This document shows, one piece after another, positions 1,659 to 11,921 of a stretch of DNA of 15,354 bases. The stretch is from a virus (taxonomy: Duplodnaviria > Heunggongvirae > Uroviricota > Caudoviricetes). Where the stretch lies: the IMG/VR virus record IMGVR_UViG_2563366828_000009; one strand, given 5' to 3'. The position numbers and the translations under genes were made by a program. The first letter of the stretch is position 1. Every line of letters begins with the position of its first letter. Under the pieces are notes generated by a model. The model had not been told where the DNA came from, searched no databases, and saw only the letters and a program-made list of their open reading frames with translations.

Positions 1659-4130
1659 TTAAGAATCAGCCTGACTCGGGATCAGTTTTTGCCAGATAAC
1701 TGAAACGTATTTTGCCTGGTAACGGGCGTCATCAAGTGCATTATGGCGCTCACCTTCGAATTGAATAGCCGTTCTGGCATCGAAGTCTATGGCTTTCCCC
1801 AGCTCAACGATTGTGCGTACATCGCGATCGTTGTAGTAACGCCACGGGCAGGGGATCCCCTGCCGTTCGTATGAACGGCGCAAAATCGTGTTGTCGAAGT
1901 TGGCTCCATTTCCCCAGACCTGAACAAAAAATTCACCGGAGTTTTCGTCGATAAATTCCCGCAATTGTAACAGTGCATCATCTAACGGGATTTCATCGGT
2001 CATAATGGCAGATTGCGCTTCGCGTGATTGCTTAAACCACCATTTAATGGTGTCCCGATCAATGACTCCGCCAGCAGTTTCCAGATCGATAGTCTTAATA
2101 AATTCCGGTCCCATATCTCCGGTTTGCGGATCGAAAAATATTGCACCTATTGAGATGATCGGGGCATCAGGATTTTTTCCCATGGTTTCAAGGTCGATCA
2201 TTAGATGGTCACACGTCCTGCTGGTGGATGTGATTTCGTGATGACCGTTCACCTTAATTGAGTGATCTGCCGTCTCGCCAGTTTCATTATCGCTATCGTG
2301 ATGCTGATTGCCGCCAGTGTTCTCCTTGTGTGGATGTTCAGCGCCTTCCATTTTCTCCGGATCATCTTCCTGAACTTCAACCTGATACTCTTCATCGAAT
2401 GTTTCCTGGTATGTTGCGTCGCCCATTACCGCGCCACAATCAGGGCAGTTGCCGCCGCCGGTCTGACCGCAGGCGGTGCAGACTTTTTCCACTTCCTGTT
2501 GCGCCACTGATTCAGGCTGTTTCGTTTCTGGCTCGTTTTGTAACGCATTTGGGCTGTTTTGTTCCGCTTTTTGGTAGTTCCGTTCCGATTCATGCTGGTT
2601 CTGGTTCACAGAATCGCGGGTCTGGATCCCCTTAACCCATTTCGGATCATTCGGGTCACTAATCCCTTCAACAAATTCACCACGTGATGCAGCAAGCAAC
2701 TTATCGGCGTCAGGCTGGATGATATTGGCTGCCTGCATAATTTTGTTTACTTCGTCAGCGGTAACTTTTATCGGCTCTGGTTGTTCTGAATCTTCAGCGG
2801 TATCTACATTTTGCGGTAAGCCCGTGTATGTGCCATTTTTTCGGGCAAAATATTCTTCTTTTGTGATTTCAGTGGCGCCAGCAGCCAGTGCCTTATCCAG
2901 ACCAGAAAGTTTGTTTGCGCGACCGTATTTTTCTCCGTCCTTATCTGCGAAGAGGAAATAGAACGGCCCCTCACGCTCTACAGATGGTTCAGCTTCCGGC
3001 GCGGTTTCATTTTTTGGGATATCAGATACCTCAGTTTCCACTGCATCAGTTTGTGTTTCTGATGACTGGAGAACATCAACAGTGCCCAGGTCTGTTTCTT
3101 CATTCTCAAACACGCCCTTTGTCGTCAGGTATTCGCAGATATATTTGTTCAGTGCTACGGGATCTTTGTGAATGTCGATCGGACGTTCACGGACAAGGCC
3201 AAAAATAGTTTGGCGGTCGTAGCGAAGGGCATCAGGCTGTTTGCGCATTGATGCCGAGATACGCTTCCAGTCTTCGCGGTCGTTATCGATAACTTCATTT
3301 TTTGCCCAGCGATGGATGCTGCCGTCAATGTTTCCGGCATCCACATCACCAGGCCAGAGAGCGTAGGCCAGTTCGTCATCCAGTGTTTTCCATGTCTGCT
3401 TGTATTCGCGATGAATGGCAGCAATGACCGGGCTGATTTTTCCTGTTGAATTTTCAGTGTACTGTTGATTGGCTCTGGCGCGGGCGAGATCAACAACAGA
3501 CGTGTATTTTCCGGTTTCCTTGCGTTCACCTTCGCGACGTTTTTTCCAGATGCGCATCTCTGCCTGAATTTCGGGCCATTTAGCACCAGGAATACATTTA
3601 TGCTTAACCCACCCAATGGCGTGCAACTTAAGCTCCGGATACATGGCGTTAACTTCTGGCATTTTCATCAACGCTTCAACGATATGTCCGTCGAATGTTG
3701 CCATGTCTTCCTGCAACAATTCCTGTGCGCTAATAACCATATCAACGGTGATGTTTTCACATGTGTCGAACTTAACCATGACAGCGTTCTGTACTTCAGG
3801 GGCCAGCTTGTCAAAAGTGACGTTCATCGGATCGGATTCAGTCTCAACCGGGACAAAAGAAGCAGACTCCTCATCCCAGCGGTTTTCCTGCATATATTCA
3901 GCATCCCATGAATCGAGGGCAGGGCGGGGTATGCCAGGTTTATCCTCGCAGACAATAAATTTATAAGCGCAGTCCTGAGCAGCCGGATAATGTTCCAGGA
4001 ATTGCCAGTGAAATTTTGCTCGAGCACGGCGTTCGTCGCCAGCTTCAATGGCTGTGGCTACAGCCACAGCGCCTTCTTCCCTTGTTGCCAGTTCGTCAGG
4101 AATAGCGGCGCAAATAAAGACTTTACTCAT
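1659..4130 (-). CDS. RecE-like exodeoxyribonuclease VIII-family prophage protein with C-terminal DnaQ-like (DEDDh-type) exonuclease domain
   Basis: 823-aa ORF. C-terminal ~180 aa carry three motifs typical of DEDDh 3'-5' exonucleases: DHLMIDLETMG, VWGNGANFDNTIL and HNALDDARYQAKY. The middle region has acidic low-complexity stretches and a CTACGQTGGGNCPDCG zinc-ribbon-like motif, as I recall for RecE-type proteins. Position (between xis and the dicB operon) is where lambdoid exo/recE genes sit. Confidence 0.75.
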   Translation of the reverse strand: MSKVFICAAIPDELATREEGAVAVATAIEAGDERRARAKFHWQFLEHYPAAQDCAYKFIVCEDKPGIPRPALDSWDAEYMQENRWDEESASFVPVETESDPMNVTFDKLAPEVQNAVMVKFDTCENITVDMVISAQELLQEDMATFDGHIVEALMKMPEVNAMYPELKLHAIGWVKHKCIPGAKWPEIQAEMRIWKKRREGERKETGKYTSVVDLARARANQQYTENSTGKISPVIAAIHREYKQTWKTLDDELAYALWPGDVDAGNIDGSIHRWAKNEVIDNDREDWKRISASMRKQPDALRYDRQTIFGLVRERPIDIHKDPVALNKYICEYLTTKGVFENEETDLGTVDVLQSSETQTDAVETEVSDIPKNETAPEAEPSVEREGPFYFLFADKDGEKYGRANKLSGLDKALAAGATEITKEEYFARKNGTYTGLPQNVDTAEDSEQPEPIKVTADEVNKIMQAANIIQPDADKLLAASRGEFVEGISDPNDPKWVKGIQTRDSVNQNQHESERNYQKAEQNSPNALQNEPETKQPESVAQQEVEKVCTACGQTGGGNCPDCGAVMGDATYQETFDEEYQVEVQEDDPEKMEGAEHPHKENTGGNQHHDSDNETGETADHSIKVNGHHEITSTSRTCDHLMIDLETMGKNPDAPIISIGAIFFDPQTGDMGPEFIKTIDLETAGGVIDRDTIKWWFKQSREAQSAIMTDEIPLDDALLQLREFIDENSGEFFVQVWGNGANFDNTILRRSYERQGIPCPWRYYNDRDVRTIVELGKAIDFDARTAIQFEGERHNALDDARYQAKYVSVIWQKLIPSQADS

Positions 4131-4223: not shown

Positions 4224-4415
4224 TTAAAGACCTGCCGGGATTTCGATATTATACTGGTGAATAACTTTATCGACCGGGTAACAGTTACCGGGAATTTTCT
4301 GTTCGGTTGCTGCAGTCATACACTCCTGCATTGTCCTGTGAACACTGACTGCAATATCAACTGGCTCTCCGGAAACAAGAAAAACTGTCAGAACAAGCGC
4401 AAATGCTGAATTCAT
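4224..4415 (-). CDS. ydfD: YdfD-like small secreted/membrane lysis-associated protein
   Basis: 63-aa product starting MNSAFALVLTVFLVSGEPVD with a signal-peptide-like N-terminus. Its ATG overlaps the dicB stop (ATGA). Matches my recollection of Qin YdfD in sequence and position. The ORF track gives a longer 81-aa frame from an upstream ATG. Confidence 0.6.
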   Translation of the reverse strand: MNSAFALVLTVFLVSGEPVDIAVSVHRTMQECMTAATEQKIPGNCYPVDKVIHQYNIEIPAGL

Positions 4416-4600
4416 TGTGCACATCCTTTTGGCATCAGACGTAAACGAGCCAGCATTGAAACAATGCATATTTTATTTAATAGCTCCCGTTCTTGTTTTC
4501 TCTTGTTAATGGCATCTTCAGTAAATACAGGGTTACTGATAGTGACACCAATTTCAAAACAACCTTCAGACGTATTAACGTTTGGTAATAACGTTTTCAT
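4412..4600 (-). CDS. dicB: cell division inhibitor DicB
   Basis: 62-aa product MKTLLPNVNTSEGCFEIGVTISNPVFTEDAINKRKQERELLNKICIVSMLARLRLMPKGCAQ starting at the internal ATG (4598-4600), which has a GAGGA RBS 7 nt upstream. Lies directly downstream of the DicF sRNA on the same strand, as in the Qin dicB operon. Confidence 0.7.
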   Translation of the reverse strand: MKTLLPNVNTSEGCFEIGVTISNPVFTEDAINKRKQERELLNKICIVSMLARLRLMPKGCAQ

Positions 4601-4767
4601 TATCGCGTCCTCAACAATGAATTTTGTGATGCAGTGCCTGGTGCCTCCAGGTGACGTTAACCAGTTAACAATTAACGCCGGATACAGAGAATCCACCCAT
4701 AACACTGTTTTTGGTTTTAACTGTTCCGCGTGCGCTTAGCCGCATTCACCGCATCACAAAATTCACT

Positions 4768-4826
4768 TTAAAAACGGCGGCAGAGCAGTCACGGAGTAAA
4801 ACTGATACCGCCAAACGTCACCAGAA
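4768..4826 (-). ncRNA. dicF: DicF small regulatory RNA (Hfq-dependent sRNA of the dicB operon; targets ftsZ and other mRNAs)
   Basis: Reverse complement of 4767-4826 reads TTTCTGGTGACGTTTGGCGGTATCAGTTTTACTCCGTGACTGCTCTGCCGCCGTTTTTAAA, matching the DicF sequence I recall, including the 3' GC stem (GGCGG...CCGCC) and U-tract. Located between the ydfB/C-like region and dicB. Confidence 0.75.
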
Positions 4827-5086
4827 AATTGATAACAGAGGGCGTTGCAGCGGGGTTGTCGCTTAAGCGTATGGTCAACCTGACAACTCGGTGTCCTCAA
4901 CGGGGAAGGAATAACCCCGCCATACTTACCGCCGCGCCATTTCGCGGGTTGCCACAACCGGAAGCGCACGGTCGAATTAAATTTGACGACACCGTACAGT
5001 GAGACGAACTTCGCCGTGCGCTTTCGTGTTGTGTGCCTGCTTTTAACCACGTCAGGCGAGGTGGTATCCTTAAAATCACCACAGTT

Positions 5087-5662
5087 TTAAGGATTCATTA
5101 AGCAATGTCGCAACCACCAATAAATCCGCTTAAGAACATGAAAATTGATTACTGGTATAAAGCGCTTACAGTTGTTGGCGCTGCGTTGTTTGTCTTTAAT
5201 GGAACGTCTTTTTTTGACAGATATCCCGTTGTTCCATTGGTTTTTTTGTCCTCCGGCATCTTTTTTATTGGTTTGGGGGAGTGGATTAATCACCCTCTCA
5301 AAGTGAGATTTATTGGTCCTGGAGTTTGGACTCGTGGATATAATCGTTCTTCGTGCGCACTCGGTATCATCTTCGACATACTTGGTTGTTTCCTGATTGT
5401 TACAGGAGTCGTCAAGTTCTTCTGATGTAAAACCGCAAATGGGGCACGTAACGGGAATTTTGAAAAGCGTTTCTCCGGGTTCCAGAACAAAATTTTCTGC
5501 GGTCTGATTTTGCTTCTCATATTTGTGCTCCGCGTCATTGTGAGAGCGCATTCTTATTCTGAGTGCCTGTTTAAACTCACTGAAGCTGAGAGCTTCTTCG
5601 CCTTCGGCAAGGCCTTCGAAGTATTCTTCGTAAGCCTTTTCCATGATTGTGTCGAAATCCAT
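5087..5662 (-). CDS. YdfB/YdfC-like dicB-operon protein; extent and frame uncertain
   Basis: N-terminus MDFDTIMEKAYEEYFEGLAEGEEALSFSEFKQALRI has an AGGTGA RBS and starts next to the ydfA stop. The C-terminal half is K/R/N-rich low complexity and lies antisense to a membrane-protein-like + strand ORF (5105..5425), so the true end or frame may differ. Confidence 0.35.
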   Translation of the reverse strand: MDFDTIMEKAYEEYFEGLAEGEEALSFSEFKQALRIRMRSHNDAEHKYEKQNQTAENFVLEPGETLFKIPVTCPICGFTSEELDDSCNNQETTKYVEDDTECARRTIISTSPNSRTNKSHFERVINPLPQTNKKDAGGQKNQWNNGISVKKRRSIKDKQRSANNCKRFIPVINFHVLKRIYWWLRHCLMNP

Positions 5663-5663
5663 A

Positions 5664-5819
5664 TCACTCACCTGAGTTTCTTTCCAGCCAGCGACGGGCA
5701 CCATTTTCGGTTTTAAACGTTTTGCTTTTGGTATACGTCATTGCGGTGAACGTGCCGTCCTGGTTTGGAAACACGCCGTACACCAGAGATTCGTTGTTGC
5801 CAAGATCGATAGTATCCAT
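5664..5819 (-). CDS. ydfA: YdfA-like small protein, first gene of the dicB operon
   Basis: 51-aa product MDTIDLGNNESLVYGVFPNQDGTFTAMTYTKSKTFKTENGARRWLERNSGE from the internal ATG at 5817-5819. Sits immediately downstream of the dicA-like repressor gene and an operator copy. Confidence 0.6.
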   Translation of the reverse strand: MDTIDLGNNESLVYGVFPNQDGTFTAMTYTKSKTFKTENGARRWLERNSGE

Positions 5820-5934
5820 GCTGACCTCATTTCCCCTTAACGCCGGGGTAGCGGAACTGTTTGCTGAGAACACCGTGCGGTGTGTTGATGGAGGTAATTT
5901 AGTTTTCTCATTATTTTTCGTCAAGGCTTTTTGA

Positions 5935-5947
5935 TGAGAAAACTCAA
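5935..5947. promoter_or_regulatory. candidate repressor operator (copy B) upstream of the dicB operon
   Basis: 13-bp core TGAGAAAACTCAA with inverted-repeat arms TGAG/CTCA, identical to the core at 6471-6483 in the repressor/cro intergenic region; flanks also similar (GTATTGG versus TACTGG). Confidence 0.45.
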
Positions 5948-6011
5948 GTATTGGCGCAAGATAAAGCCAATACATTGAAATGTAAGGCTTTAAAATTTTG
6001 TGAAGGGATGA

Positions 6012-6419
6012 TTATTGATGCTTGTTGCGTTTGCGAGCCTCTAATAGCTCGGTGAACAGGCGATTAAAATTCTCAACGCGGGCGCGGAGTTCGCTGAGTT
6101 GTGCTTGTTGCTCTGATTTAGGAAGTGCGCGATACAAACGCAGCATCTCTAACTCATCTTCCGATAAGTCTAAGGCACTATCGAGTGAAACAGGGGGAGC
6201 TGGTGTTTTGTCCTCGTCGCCAAACAGTATCCAGGTTGGTGAACATTGCAATACCTCGGCGAGGCGATGCAAATTTTGCCCGCGCGGGGCTGTATGGTCA
6301 CTTTCCCATAATGAAATTGATGAGCCAGATACGCCAGCAGCTTTGCTTAAACCGTTTTGACTTAAACCTACCTGCTTACGTCTTTCTCTAATGCGTTGAC
6401 CTAAAGTTTTCTCGTTCAT
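6012..6419 (-). CDS. dicA: DicA-like HTH (XRE/cI-family) prophage repressor
   Basis: 135-aa product from the internal ATG at 6417-6419 (MNEKTLGQRIRERRKQVGLSQNGLSKAAGVS...LAEVLQCSPTWILFGDEDK...). Has an N-terminal helix-turn-helix and is divergent from a Cro-like gene. Closely resembles K-12 DicA as I recall it. The ORF track's longer frame (to 6470) would overlap the divergent promoter. Confidence 0.8.
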   Translation of the reverse strand: MNEKTLGQRIRERRKQVGLSQNGLSKAAGVSGSSISLWESDHTAPRGQNLHRLAEVLQCSPTWILFGDEDKTPAPPVSLDSALDLSEDELEMLRLYRALPKSEQQAQLSELRARVENFNRLFTELLEARKRNKHQ

Positions 6420-6440
6420 ATTTAGATATCTTAATAACCC

Positions 6441-6470
6441 TTGACTTGAGATTCCTTGAGTGATTAGCAT
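6441..6470 (+). promoter_or_regulatory. candidate rightward promoter for the cro-like gene
   Basis: TTGACT (6441-6446), 18-bp spacer, TAGCAT (6465-6470). The operator inverted repeat overlaps the -10 and start region; GGAGG RBS at 6489 and ATG at 6497 follow. Confidence 0.35.
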
Positions 6471-6483
6471 TGAGAAAACTCAA
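6470..6483. promoter_or_regulatory. candidate repressor operator (copy A) between divergent repressor and cro-like genes
   Basis: Inverted repeat TTGAG-AAAA-CTCAA; its 13-bp core is identical to 5935-5947. Confidence 0.45.
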
Positions 6484-6496
6484 TACTGGAGGTGCG

Positions 6497-6724
6497 ATGT
6501 TTAAATCAGACGTAATTAATTTTTACGGTACGAAAGCCAAAGTAGCGAAAGCTGCTGGCGTTGACCCATCTGCTGTTTCTCAATGGCAAGAGCTGGTTCC
6601 TGAAGGTCGCGCGATGCGTCTACAGGAGGCATCTGGCGGCGAGCTTCTGTATGATCCCAAGGTTTATGACGAATATCGTAAGACGAAGCGGGCGGGGCGG
6701 TTGAACAATGAAAATCACTCCTGA
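6497..6724 (+). CDS. dicC: DicC-like Cro-type regulator
   Basis: 75-aa product from the ATG at 6497 with a GGAGG RBS (MFKSDVINFYGTKAKVAKAAGVDPSAVSQWQ...). Helix-turn-helix region typical of Cro/YdaS-like proteins; divergent from the repressor. Confidence 0.8.
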   Translation: MFKSDVINFYGTKAKVAKAAGVDPSAVSQWQELVPEGRAMRLQEASGGELLYDPKVYDEYRKTKRAGRLNNENHS

Positions 6725-7229
6725 ACAGGCTCGTGAGGCTCTGGATGCCTGGATATGTCGACCAGGAATGACACAGGAGCAGGCGACGATATTAATCACT
6801 GAAGCATTCTGGGCTTTGAAAGAGCGCCCGAACATCGATGTTCAGCGTGTCACAGATGAAGGTGGCGCGGTTGATCAGCGAGCGCTTGGCGTTAATCGAG
6901 TGAAGATATTCGAACGCTGGAAGGCTATCGACACCAGGGATAAGCGTGAAAAGTTCACGGCGCTAGTGCCTGCAATTATGGAGGCTATCCGGATTAATGA
7001 TTTCAGGTTGTATCGTGAAATTAGTGACGGAAAAAGCATCACGTACATGATCGCCGGGTTAAACAAAGAATATGGCGATGTGGTGGAGTCCGGACTGCTT
7101 TTTGCTGATCCTGCCGTAGTGGATCGTGAAACTGACGAACTTATAGAAAAAGCAATTGCTTTCAAACTTGCGTATCGACAGCAATACCAACAAAAAGCTG
7201 GATGGAATTATGAGCCTTCTTTTTGCTGA
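6708..7229 (+). CDS. hypothetical early-operon protein in the cII position (possible YdaT-like regulator)
   Basis: 173-aa ORF. Start overlaps the cro-like stop and its end overlaps the start of the O-like gene, suggesting translational coupling within the early right operon. No recognisable catalytic motif; functional call is positional only. Confidence 0.5.
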   Translation: MKITPEQAREALDAWICRPGMTQEQATILITEAFWALKERPNIDVQRVTDEGGAVDQRALGVNRVKIFERWKAIDTRDKREKFTALVPAIMEAIRINDFRLYREISDGKSITYMIAGLNKEYGDVVESGLLFADPAVVDRETDELIEKAIAFKLAYRQQYQQKAGWNYEPSFC

Positions 7230-8835: not shown

Positions 8836-10623
8836 TTAAGTCTGAGCCTCACTCTCTTGGCCATAAGTGGCTTGCCAGTATCTCGCCGTAGGGTTCATTA
8901 GAATGTGCAATACAAGCCACCATGCAAAAATGCAGGGAGGTTGATTGTAGTAACCGGCAGGCACATATCCGTGAGCTAGTTGATTTCGTAAATCACCATA
9001 GATTTTATCTACCAGTAAGGCCTGAAGATTGCCAATTATGTCTACGCCGAAAGCTTCAATAATCAGTGGATTATCTAGTAATCCCTTGAGTCCATTTCGC
9101 TCTTGCGAACCGTCCCCGTGAAGCTGCGATGGTTCCTCACCTTTAATTTTAGCCACATATCTCAGACTATTTTCGATCTGGGGAATCAACACGTGGCATG
9201 CCGTCATAAAATCTCCATTGAAACCGCAAACCATACCCTTGATGAAAAACTCTTCATGCCCAAACGGGATGAAGGGATGATTGATGAACATATCGCGAAA
9301 AAACGCCTCCGAGATTGGATATTTCATTGTGATCTCATCTGTAGCAGGAATAATTTGCCCAGCTACTGCCAACTCATGGTCGATACGCATTCTCGTCATC
9401 ATTATGGGCCAAATAACTGCCCCATTTGCATCATCAATCCCCAATCCTGCGGGTATGCGAGCAAGTGTCATTCCCTCATGATCAATATGTGTTGATCCAA
9501 ACATCCAAGCTATGCTGTTGGCCTTTTGTTCTATTGCTTGAGCCTTAAGTCTCTCAATGCTGGTTGGCCGACAGACCAGCATCGCAAGTCTGAAAACCAT
9601 ATCAAACATATCTCTTCCGACTACCCGACTCTTGGCTTGATGGACAATCTCACTAATATCTTGAGGGGGAGACTGAAGGATAGACATCTGGTGACGGGAT
9701 TCGATTTGGTAATCACGCATTTCTTCATACAGCGCAAGACGTTCTATTCGGGTTCCTGGAATATTAGCCAGTGCTTCAATAGCATTCTGCATGCAGGCTG
9801 CCGAAATCATACCGCCATCTTGGAATTTTGACTCTTCCAGATGTGTATCGGCAAGAAGCCGCCAGAATTCAAACTGTGTATCTCTGTCACAGCACCTATT
9901 CGCAATCGTGATTGCGGTTTTACAGGCATCGACGGCAAATGAAAATAATTTTTGAGCCAGATAGTTTTTTGTCAGAAACAGGAGTTCCTGGGCAATAAAA
10001 GATGGCTCACTCACTTTACAGTCGATATCGAGTTGCAGGAGTCGCAGCGGATAAGGTGAATCGCCTTGTTCTCTGGTACGTTCATACTCTGCTAGTAGAT
10101 GTGCCGAAAGCTGATCAAATTCATCCCTGAAATCAGTATTCTTTCGAAAAAAACAACACAGCCTAAGCGCACGCTCTAGGCGTTCTAAAGCACTAACCCA
10201 CGTCCCTTGCGATGTCATAATAGCTATACTGGACGCATAATAAGCACGGACTGCCAGCAAAGGAAAACGGATTCCACCAATTTTACGAACCCAAAGTGTA
10301 TCAGCAATACGAGCTTGAAGTTCGGGTAGCTCTATCGTCGGGCAAAATTGAGAAAGTACCTCCAGCGACAACCCGTTAATGTCATCCGGAATTGCAGATC
10401 TACCTTGGCTGCTTTGAAAGCACGGACCAAATGGTACCTGTGGATTTTCGGGACGAAAGTGAAAACCGCAAATATGGGTTAGCAGTCTTATCTCCGCTCT
10501 TCCATCACCTAGGCTAGAAAGATACTTTGTGATATCAAAGCAGGTAACTGGCAGCTTACTCTGGATTAAGGGGGATAAATCAATAGTGTTAAGTTCGTCG
10601 AGGCTGATATTAATATCGTCCAT
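8836..10623 (-). CDS. large orphan protein (595 aa) with C-terminal HEPN-like R-x4-H motif; candidate abortive-infection / anti-phage effector
   Basis: Long uninterrupted ORF on the strand opposite all flanking phage genes. ATG at 10623 has an AAGGTGA RBS. No Walker A/P-loop visible. C-terminal DLRNQLAHG (codons 8971-8988) fits the HEPN RNase signature R-[N/Q/H]-x3-H. Flanks are AT-rich non-coding DNA (8618-8835 and 10624-10990). Confidence 0.75.
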   Translation of the reverse strand: MDDINISLDELNTIDLSPLIQSKLPVTCFDITKYLSSLGDGRAEIRLLTHICGFHFRPENPQVPFGPCFQSSQGRSAIPDDINGLSLEVLSQFCPTIELPELQARIADTLWVRKIGGIRFPLLAVRAYYASSIAIMTSQGTWVSALERLERALRLCCFFRKNTDFRDEFDQLSAHLLAEYERTREQGDSPYPLRLLQLDIDCKVSEPSFIAQELLFLTKNYLAQKLFSFAVDACKTAITIANRCCDRDTQFEFWRLLADTHLEESKFQDGGMISAACMQNAIEALANIPGTRIERLALYEEMRDYQIESRHQMSILQSPPQDISEIVHQAKSRVVGRDMFDMVFRLAMLVCRPTSIERLKAQAIEQKANSIAWMFGSTHIDHEGMTLARIPAGLGIDDANGAVIWPIMMTRMRIDHELAVAGQIIPATDEITMKYPISEAFFRDMFINHPFIPFGHEEFFIKGMVCGFNGDFMTACHVLIPQIENSLRYVAKIKGEEPSQLHGDGSQERNGLKGLLDNPLIIEAFGVDIIGNLQALLVDKIYGDLRNQLAHGYVPAGYYNQPPCIFAWWLVLHILMNPTARYWQATYGQESEAQT

Positions 10624-11086: not shown

Positions 11087-11297
11087 TTTCATATTGGCGA
11101 GGTAACGGTAGTTAAGTAGAATGGCTGCGGGTGCTTGAGGCTATCTGCCTCGGGCATGAACACCAAAGGCAGATAGAGAAAAGCCCCAGTTAACATTACG
11201 CGTCCTGCAAGACGCTTAACATTAATCTGAGGCCAATTTCATGCTAGACACATGTAGGTTAGCCTCTTACGAGCCGAAAGGCAAGGAGAAGCAGGCT

Positions 11298-11453
11298 ATG
11301 AAGCAGCAAAAGGCGATGTTAATCGCCCTGATCGTCATCTGTTTAACCGTCATAGTGACGGCACTGGTAACGAGGAAAGACCTCTGCGAGGTACGAATCC
11401 GAACCGGCCAGACGGAGGTCGCTGTCTTCACAGCTTACGAACCTGAGGAGTAA
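11298..11453 (+). CDS. hokD: Hok-family type I toxin HokD (RelF)
   Basis: 51-aa product MKQQKAMLIALIVICLTVIVTALVTRKDLCEVRIRTGQTEVAVFTAYEPEE; AAGGAGAA RBS 7 nt upstream. Structured leader with a CTATCTGCC...GGCAGATAG hairpin, and 3' fold-back hairpins plus terminator, as expected for hok mRNAs. Confidence 0.85.
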   Translation: MKQQKAMLIALIVICLTVIVTALVTRKDLCEVRIRTGQTEVAVFTAYEPEE

Positions 11454-11669: not shown

Positions 11670-11921
11670 ATGATGAACATCGAAGAACTGCGTAAAATTT
11701 TTTGTGAAGATGGCCTCTATGCTGTGTGCGTTGAAAATGGAAATCTTGTTAGTCATTACCGCATTATGTGTTTGCGAAAGAATGGGGCTGCGTTAATTAA
11801 TTTTGTGGATGCTCGGGTCACGGACGGATTTATCTTGCGCGAAGGTGAGTTTGTCACTTCATTACAGGCATTGAAAGAGATCGGAATAAAAGCTGGCTTT
11901 TCTGCTTTTGCAGAAGAATAA
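11670..11921 (+). CDS. rem: Rem-like small prophage protein (83 aa)
   Basis: ATG at 11670 with a GGAAGGA RBS. Length and position (between hokD and the ydfU-like gene) match Qin rem as I recall it; function unknown. Confidence 0.55.
   Translation: MMNIEELRKIFCEDGLYAVCVENGNLVSHYRIMCLRKNGAALINFVDARVTDGFILREGEFVTSLQALKEIGIKAGFSAFAEE

Follow-up and report, generated by a model that had tools for sequence, protein, structure and literature searches.

A 13-base repeat is very probably the operator by which a Qin-like Escherichia coli prophage repressor silences its cro-side and dicB-side promoters

Introduction

The Qin prophage of Escherichia coli K-12 provides the well-studied point of comparison for the immunity region described here, its DicA/DicC-dicBp segment having been the subject of Bejar et al. 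1988, as cited in PMC10448788, and of Yun et al. 2012 (PMC3441716). DicA binds Oc, the experimentally supported operator TTGTTAGTCATAACTAACAA, represses dicC and activates dicA; the Om and Oa sites show no DicA binding alone, Oc being the only one bound (PMC3441716). DicA also represses dicBp, a repression that is relieved by Rem, the Qin antirepressor (PMC10448788), and ChIP-seq peaks of DicC lie on either side of dicA (PMC11430063). The PL-side operators of K-12 Qin rest on sequence, genetics and DicC ChIP.

In the lambdoid switches of lambda, 434 and P22, the repressor and Cro share operators. Those of 434 are 14-bp dyads with contacted arms of 4 bp (ACAA-N6-TTGT) around a centre that tunes affinity without being contacted, and those of P22 are 18 bp long and unlike the sequence reported below. 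In lambda, a loop between OL and OR couples repression to autoregulation.

Here, we analyse a stretch of viral DNA of 15,354 nucleotides (IMG/VR record IMGVR_UViG_2563366828_000009), hereafter the window, in which an initial annotation had pointed to an identical 13-bp sequence on both sides of a DicA-like repressor gene and had proposed that the repressor controls both the cro-like promoter and the promoter of the dicB operon. We find three copies of this sequence at two predicted promoters, follow them through related loci, and put forward that the repeat is very probably the operator by which the repressor silences the cro-side and dicB-side promoters.

Results

The window is a lambdoid prophage of the Qin/mEp460 type. 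A 1.2-kb segment of it (5600-6800) is 100% identical to Qin-like prophages that stand beside rspB in many E. coli chromosomes, and at least 80% of this query is present in about 796 of 5,426 complete genomes and also in the functional phage mEp460_ev081. Gene coordinates follow an identical annotated record and Rfam matches. On the minus strand lie the integrase (20-1300), excisionase (1335-1586) and exonuclease (1659-4130) genes, ydfD (4224-4415) and the controlled operon ydfA-dicF-dicB (4412..5819), with dicB at 4412-4600, the DicF RNA at 4775-4826 (Rfam, 72.5 bits; unannotated in the identical RefSeq record) and ydfA at 5664-5819. The operon also includes an open reading frame of 191 aa (5087-5662) that found no match in Pfam and PADLOC searches; the stretch 5045-5561, which takes in part of it, is absent from K-12 Qin, where ydfB and ydfC stand. 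Between DicF and dicB, the operon transcript contains an inverted repeat of 13-15 nt (4618-4632 and 4751-4765; GAATTTTGTGATG...) that may form a stem for processing of the dicBF mRNA.

Rightwards of the switch, a YdaT-like gene (6708-7229, plus strand) is followed by replication-region genes and then by a reversed gene for a DUF4209 protein of 595 aa (8836-10623, minus strand), which stands between the replication genes and hokD. Its product matches the PADLOC candidate defence family PDC-S39 (E = 8e-103), and from this similarity the gene looks like a prophage-borne defence moron. The sok antitoxin RNA lies upstream of hokD (11129-11303, plus strand; Rfam, 116 bits), and a rem homologue (11670..11921, plus strand), 99% identical to rem of mEp460_ev081, precedes ydfU and a Q-like antiterminator. 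The function of Rem is known from K-12 only (PMC10448788).

At the heart of the region, a gene for a DicA-like immunity repressor of 135 aa (6012..6419, minus strand; HTH_3; WP_001003381.1) faces away from a Cro-like (DicC-like) gene (6497..6724, plus strand) of the P22_Cro family (PF14549, E = 3e-16), and the gene assignments made initially hold, with ydfA, DicF and dicB downstream. The repressor is 55% identical to K-12 DicA overall, with a conserved C-terminal half, and its recognition helix reads VSGSSISLWES as against ISHVSVSQWER in DicA. Its N-terminal domain matches that of P22 C2 (E = 8e-16; PDB 1adr, 2r1j, 3jxb), and the 434 Cro and cI domains are detectable relatives (E = 2e-6 to 5e-4). 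Family searches with the repressor, which is just 135 aa long, matched HTH families only and no peptidase S24 domain; DicA has likewise been reported to be without a domain of the S24/RecA-cleavage type (PMC10448788). The Cro-like protein matches the P22 Cro structure 1rzs (E = 2e-12).

The start of the repressor gene has features of its own. The repressor mRNA may be leaderless, as is the lambda cI mRNA made from PRM, for the ATG has no Shine-Dalgarno sequence before it and, 8 nt upstream on the minus strand, there is a TAAGAT hexamer. A near-perfect palindrome, TATTTAGATATCTTAATA (6419-6436), adjoins the start codon; it is conserved by clade, in all '...ISLWE' repressors, rather than by operator type, and resembles the P22 operator consensus.

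The 13-mer itself, TGAGAAAACTCAA, is present as two exact copies on the plus strand, at 5935-5947 and 6471-6483, just as first noticed, and the inverted-repeat character ascribed to it is that of a dyad, TTGAG-AAAA-CTCAA. A third copy had been overlooked: TGAGAAAACTAAA, on the minus strand at 5898-5910, is inverted and has one mismatch. These copies define three sites. Site A, the putative PR-side operator and equivalent of K-12 Oc and lambda OR1, is the 14-bp dyad TTGAGAAAACTCAA (6470..6483, plus strand), the symmetry of which reaches 16 bp (ATTGAGAAAACTCAAT). Site C, the promoter-proximal, OL1-like candidate operator on the PL side, reads ATGAGAAAACTAAA on the minus strand (5898..5911). Site B, the distal, OL2-like candidate (ATGAGAAAACTCAA; 5934..5947, plus strand), is inverted with respect to site C, and the two form an inverted pair with arms of 17 nt, 88% complementary, separated by a gap of 22 nt.

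A consensus scan of 5780-6540 yielded only two sigma-70-like promoters, one on the cro side and one on the side of the dicB operon, and a copy of the motif touches each. The predicted PR-like promoter of the cro-like gene (6441..6470, plus strand) consists of TTGACT, 18 nt and TAGCAT, and the predicted PL-like promoter, the equivalent of dicBp (5896..5924, minus strand), consists of TTGACG, 17 nt and TAAATT and is directed towards ydfA-dicF-dicB. Both the -35 element of the cro promoter, together with its spacing, and the dicBp-like promoter are conserved family-wide. On the cro side, site A directly follows the -10 element (TAGCAT, 6465-6470) and covers the expected start site. The initial annotation was right to place this copy in the promoter region but less so in having it overlap the -10, as the 14-bp dyad abuts the hexamer and shares a single base with it rather than lying inside it.

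On the other side, the spacer of the dicB-operon promoter is taken up by site C, the right half-site of which belongs to the -10 element. The single mismatch of site C, a C-to-A change at base 5900, falls on position 2 of the -10 hexamer TAAATT, and we attribute it to this overlap, since a dual role as operator and -10 element requires it. The arrangement, GAGAAAAC running directly into TAAnnT, occurs in representatives of all 11 helix classes of the window type, and almost all distinct sequences of site C share it. Site B, 9 nt upstream of the -35 element, does not overlap the core promoter. The proposal that one repressor controls both promoters thus gains in silico support, from the contact of the motif with each promoter and from the helix covariation described below, with the correction that the copy in the core dicB-operon promoter is site C, site B lying upstream of its -35.

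A further argument was that chance would hardly produce a 13-bp identity in 15 kb. This does not hold, and we dropped the rarity of such a repeat across the whole window as an argument: five independent direct 13-mer repeats are found in the window, and first-order Markov simulations give a mean of 2.4, with at least one in 85% of simulated sequences, so that repeats of this kind are expected by chance. The sites are significant through their location, their dyad symmetry and the comparison with relatives, not through the rarity of the 13-mer. The non-coding stretches on either side of the repressor gene (189 and 77 nt) have a run of 13 bases in common, and in dinucleotide-preserving shuffles of these two stretches (n = 3000) the longest common run was 12, with 0/3000 reaching 13. 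Furthermore, the pattern TTGAGNNNNCTCAA, with up to 2 mismatches, has 8 matches in the whole window, 5 of which lie inside the flanking 266 nt (binomial, 8e-8).

These figures bear on the reading that the repeat is a chance coincidence or the functionless relic of a local duplication. It would agree with how common 13-mer repeats are in a 15-kb window and with the TATTGG that trails both direct copies in most variants, but the shuffles restricted to location, the third, inverted copy, the conservation across genera between diverged flanks and the covariation with the recognition helix together make it extremely improbable. We regard chance itself as ruled out by the placement shuffles, helix covariation and cross-locus conservation.

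For the comparison with relatives, we assembled 134 distinct related loci, 62 with a window-type helix, S-[GDE]-S-[ST]-[IV]-S, and 72 with other helices; a scan of genome contigs gave 14 loci, and four scans of viral contigs supplied further diversity. The promoter scaffold is constant over all 134. Many of the loci are closely related, and the conservation counts are thus not independent; with this in mind, the 12-bp core TGAGAAAACTCA, allowing one mismatch, is present at the PR position in 62/62 distinct window-type loci, and on the PL side there are two copies of the core in 56 of these and one in the remaining 6. At site A, TTGAGAAAACTCA is kept in 17/17 distinct 22-mers from the 62 loci, with varying flanks. 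A motif search in related prophages, which the initial annotation had suggested, hence returns further copies at the same three positions in window-type loci, and the conservation of site B, on which that annotation had made its model depend, is borne out by a retained core and by a B-to-C spacing that stays within 35-37 bp wherever both sites were located, in 61 distinct window-type loci. Where repressors are 70-88% identical to that of the window (Buttiauxella, Salmonella, Citrobacter-type and others), the core is kept at the three positions between diverged flanks, and all three sites are present in the functional temperate phage mEp460_ev081.

Among 46 distinct IMG/VR sequences with the same repressor, no column varies in cores A and B and one varies in core C, and the substitutions crowd the edges of the cores (5934, 5948-5951, 6467-6469 and 6485-6486). 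At site B, 5935-5947 is invariant, with variation at 5934 and 5948-5951. As a footprint statistic, finding no more than one variable column in 39 core columns is modest (hypergeometric p = 0.03). The window has C at 6486, where 42/46 of these sequences have T; a T there makes TATTGG trail the site A core, just as it trails the core of site B, with an offset of one base. Three contigs in our collection (L083, L084 and L089) bear the MAG labels Bacillota, Veillonella parvula and Collinsella and carry E. coli prophage repressor genes, two of them encoding proteins 100% identical to the window repressor and one a protein of the K-12 DicA type; they are probably mis-binned E. coli contigs.

Loci with other helices provide the complementary view. 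The core TGAGAAAACTCA is absent from 66/72 of them, and different dyads, for example TTGTTAAATAAACTCAACAA, TTGTTTAACATTCTCAACAA, CCTTAGGAAAACCTAAGG and TTGTTAGGAAAATCTAACAA, stand at the same three positions; in an alignment anchored on the -35 element, the position of site A is that of K-12 Oc, and dyads related to Oc occupy the three positions in K-12. The mean Hamming distance between the PR 16-mer and the PL region is 2.8 within the same locus and 2.25 between loci that share a helix, as against 5.2 between loci with different helices, and the covariation of the dyad with the recognition helix of the repressor is supported by a permutation over 15 helix groups (p = 5e-5). The Cro HTH motif DPSAVSQW, for its part, is found wherever the operator arms are TTGAG/CTCAA.

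On this basis, we consider it highly likely that the three copies of TGAGAAAACT(C/A)A act as operators of the prophage immunity switch. That they could serve the Cro-like protein alone, with the 135-aa repressor binding elsewhere, is improbable in our view. The motif DPSAVSQW does follow the TTGAG..CTCAA dyad no less closely than the repressor helix, and the direct ChIP evidence from K-12 on both sides of dicA concerns DicC (PMC11430063); yet the repressor helix co-varies equally, DicA of K-12 binds Oc, the positional equivalent of site A (PMC3441716), repressor and Cro use common operators in lambdoid switches, and neither promoter has another conserved dyad open to the repressor.

The differences from K-12 Qin are confined to a sharply bounded segment. 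An immunity module of 705 bp (5891..6595) has diverged to about 30-60% identity, between flanks that are 99.4% (5562-5890) and 98% (6596-6987) identical to K-12 Qin. Inside it lie exactly the dicBp-like promoter and its sites C and B, the gene for the repressor, the cro promoter together with site A, and the start of cro up to codon 33; the left edge of the module falls on the expected start site of dicBp. The Cro-like gene is consequently a composite, with the N-terminal HTH part in the swapped module and a C-terminal part 98% identical in DNA to K-12 dicC. As judged by sequence comparison, the two promoters with their operators, the gene for the repressor and the N-terminus of cro make up one exchangeable immunity cassette of 705 bp. 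A leader (5850-5890, minus strand; ..CCATCAAGACACCGCACGGTGT..), just downstream of the -10 of dicBp, starts at the left cassette boundary, contains the 6-bp inverted repeat ACACCG/CGGTGT and is kept in all immunity types of the family.

Site B, which stands apart from the core promoter, invites explanations other than an operator. One is that it belongs mainly to an intrinsic terminator of the repressor transcript, with a hairpin ending in CUUGAG before UUUUCUC. Indeed, the minus-strand RNA from 6015 to 5940 folds in the window as a hairpin of 13 bp whose end is the TTGAG of site B, with UUUUCUCAU after it (dG -13.6 kcal/mol, z = -3.0). Against this, the majority variant in E. coli and most other genera fold a different hairpin upstream, away from the U run, the TGAG/CTCA arms are kept even where the hairpin is missing, and K-12-type loci have a dyad at the site B position without a T run. 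A terminator scan from the repressor stop to site B found none under the criteria of the tool. We rejected site B as a terminator U-tract on the grounds that the fold, good as it is in the window, is not conserved; a main role of this kind is quite improbable, and any terminator function would be at most a secondary, strain-specific overlap.

The stretch downstream of the repressor stop (5943-5995, minus strand) can form two alternative hairpins, the one just described and AAAGCC..GGCUUU, which is the preferred fold in most variants; either may be a terminator between the repressor gene and dicBp. Also in this stretch, a TTCAATGT(G/A)TTG block is conserved across genera.

Site B might otherwise be an A/T-rich, UP-like element of the dicB-operon promoter, its identity with site A being incidental. 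About 9-22 nt upstream of the -35, it does occupy the usual place of an UP element, in a sequence rich in T-runs and A-runs. Such an element, however, has no need for G/C-containing TGAG...CTCA arms, which are the invariant part across genera, and in other immunity types these arms give way to the dyad specific to the locus, which leaves the UP-element reading very improbable. We therefore retain site B as a putative PL-side operator.

Other resemblances to the motif in the PR region are weaker. A candidate second PR operator, equivalent to Om (TTGAGATTCCTTGA; 6446..6459, plus strand), has 2 half-site mismatches, lies in the -35 and spacer of the cro promoter at 24 bp centre to centre from site A, and tracks the locus-specific operator weakly (permutation p = 0.02). 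A weak candidate third element, equivalent to Oa (6421..6434, plus strand), is the palindrome TTTAGATATCTTAA that abuts the repressor start codon; its tracking of the locus-specific operator is not significant (p = 0.07), and it is conserved by clade, not by helix. The Om-like and Oa-like half-matches are spaced 24-25 bp. A fourth copy, AGTTTTCTCGTT (minus strand AACGAGAAAACT), in repressor codons 2-5 (6405-6416), was taken as chance because it has 3 core mismatches and the encoded E-K-T is unconserved, other window-type loci having MNEM.. or MSEI.. instead.

Discussion

In this work, the presence of three sites, their positions relative to the predicted promoters, their conservation and their co-variation with both recognition helices are demonstrated directly, and from them we infer binding, repression and any cooperativity at this operator type. 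In the mechanism that we propose, each dyad would be bound by a dimer of the 135-aa DicA-like repressor, by way of a helix-turn-helix like that of P22 C2. The dimer at site A would occupy the start site after the -10 and block rightward transcription of cro, ydaT and the replication genes, and, if the analogy to K-12 DicA at Oc applies, the repressor may also stimulate its own weak promoter. On the dicB side, dimers at sites C and B would bracket the -35, cover the spacer and the -10, and block leftward transcription of ydfA-dicF-dicB. The Cro-like protein, the HTH part of which was exchanged along with the operators, most likely recognizes these dyads too, in the manner of Cro in lambda and P22, and probably uses the same three sites.

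What site B contributes is the weakest point of this model. The 36 bp between B and C correspond to about 3.4 helical turns, which would place the two dimers on different faces of the DNA, so that a simple cooperative pair of the lambda kind is not obvious. Because site B avoids the core promoter and is still kept 35-37 bp from C in every immunity type, we put forward, as a tentative and rather unlikely possibility, that it serves a higher-order assembly, in which dimers at B and C clamp the -35, or loop the repressor gene of about 0.55 kb to site A, or both. If true, this would couple repression of the dicB operon to autoregulation of the repressor, and would do so with a small repressor without a C-terminal domain of the lambda type.

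Placed beside K-12 Qin, the locus is the same in gene order and orientation, with the dicC-like and dicA-like genes divergent and the latter followed by dicBp and ydfA..dicF..dicB, as well as in the 135-aa length of the repressor, the promoter scaffold, three dyads at equal positions relative to the -35 and -10, and the rem gene. At the sequence level, the features of a Qin-type region are found throughout: a short DicA-like repressor without S24, a divergent P22_Cro gene, a promoter towards ydfA...dicF...dicB, dyads at the dicC-side and dicB-side promoters, and rem on the same element. What differs is the specificity. The operator is TGAG-AAAA-CTCA (12-14 bp) in the window and the 20-bp TTGTTAGTCATAACTAACAA in K-12, the recognition helices of both the repressor and Cro differ, and neither an operator of the TTGTTAGTCATAACTAACAA type nor the helix ISHVSVSQWER occurs.

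The resemblance extends to the classical switches. P22 immC shares with the window a C2-like N-terminal repressor domain, a P22 Cro-like gene, divergent genes and operators at the rightward and leftward promoters, whereas the window repressor is without a RecA-cleavable peptidase S24 C-terminal domain, and the window has one strong candidate operator at PR and two at PL where P22 immC has three and three. Indeed, the hallmark of lambda and P22 CI-type repressors, an S24 domain with a site for RecA-stimulated self-cleavage, is lacking. Like imm434 and lambda, the locus follows the concept of a compact, exchangeable unit in which operators, repressor and cro HTH sit between homologous flanks; the C-terminal domain of the repressor differs, as does induction, which in the window type would proceed by antirepressor and not by RecA cleavage. 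We take the short 4+4+4 dyad to recall the 14-bp operators of 434, although the window has arms and centre of 4+4+4 or 5+4+5, an invariant A-tract centre and an unrelated sequence.

The layout as a whole is an ordinary textbook arrangement of lambdoid immunity, with an operator unlike the well-studied one of K-12, and would not surprise a specialist. In the searchable literature, the motif string returned only unrelated eukaryotic primer matches, and the papers on mEp460 do not treat its operators; as no description of the operator was found there, we take it to be a new specificity in a known system.

The core TGAGAAAACTCA and the boundaries of its cassette are now defined for a common immunity type of E. 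coli. As operator, helix and module all differ from those of K-12, a different immunity specificity within the same scaffold is to be expected, and the prophage would be heteroimmune to K-12 Qin, a prediction that follows from the finding. More broadly, the family constitutes a natural recognition code, with at least 8 pairs of helix and operator in one fixed promoter scaffold, and as such offers a dataset for the specificity of helix-turn-helix proteins.
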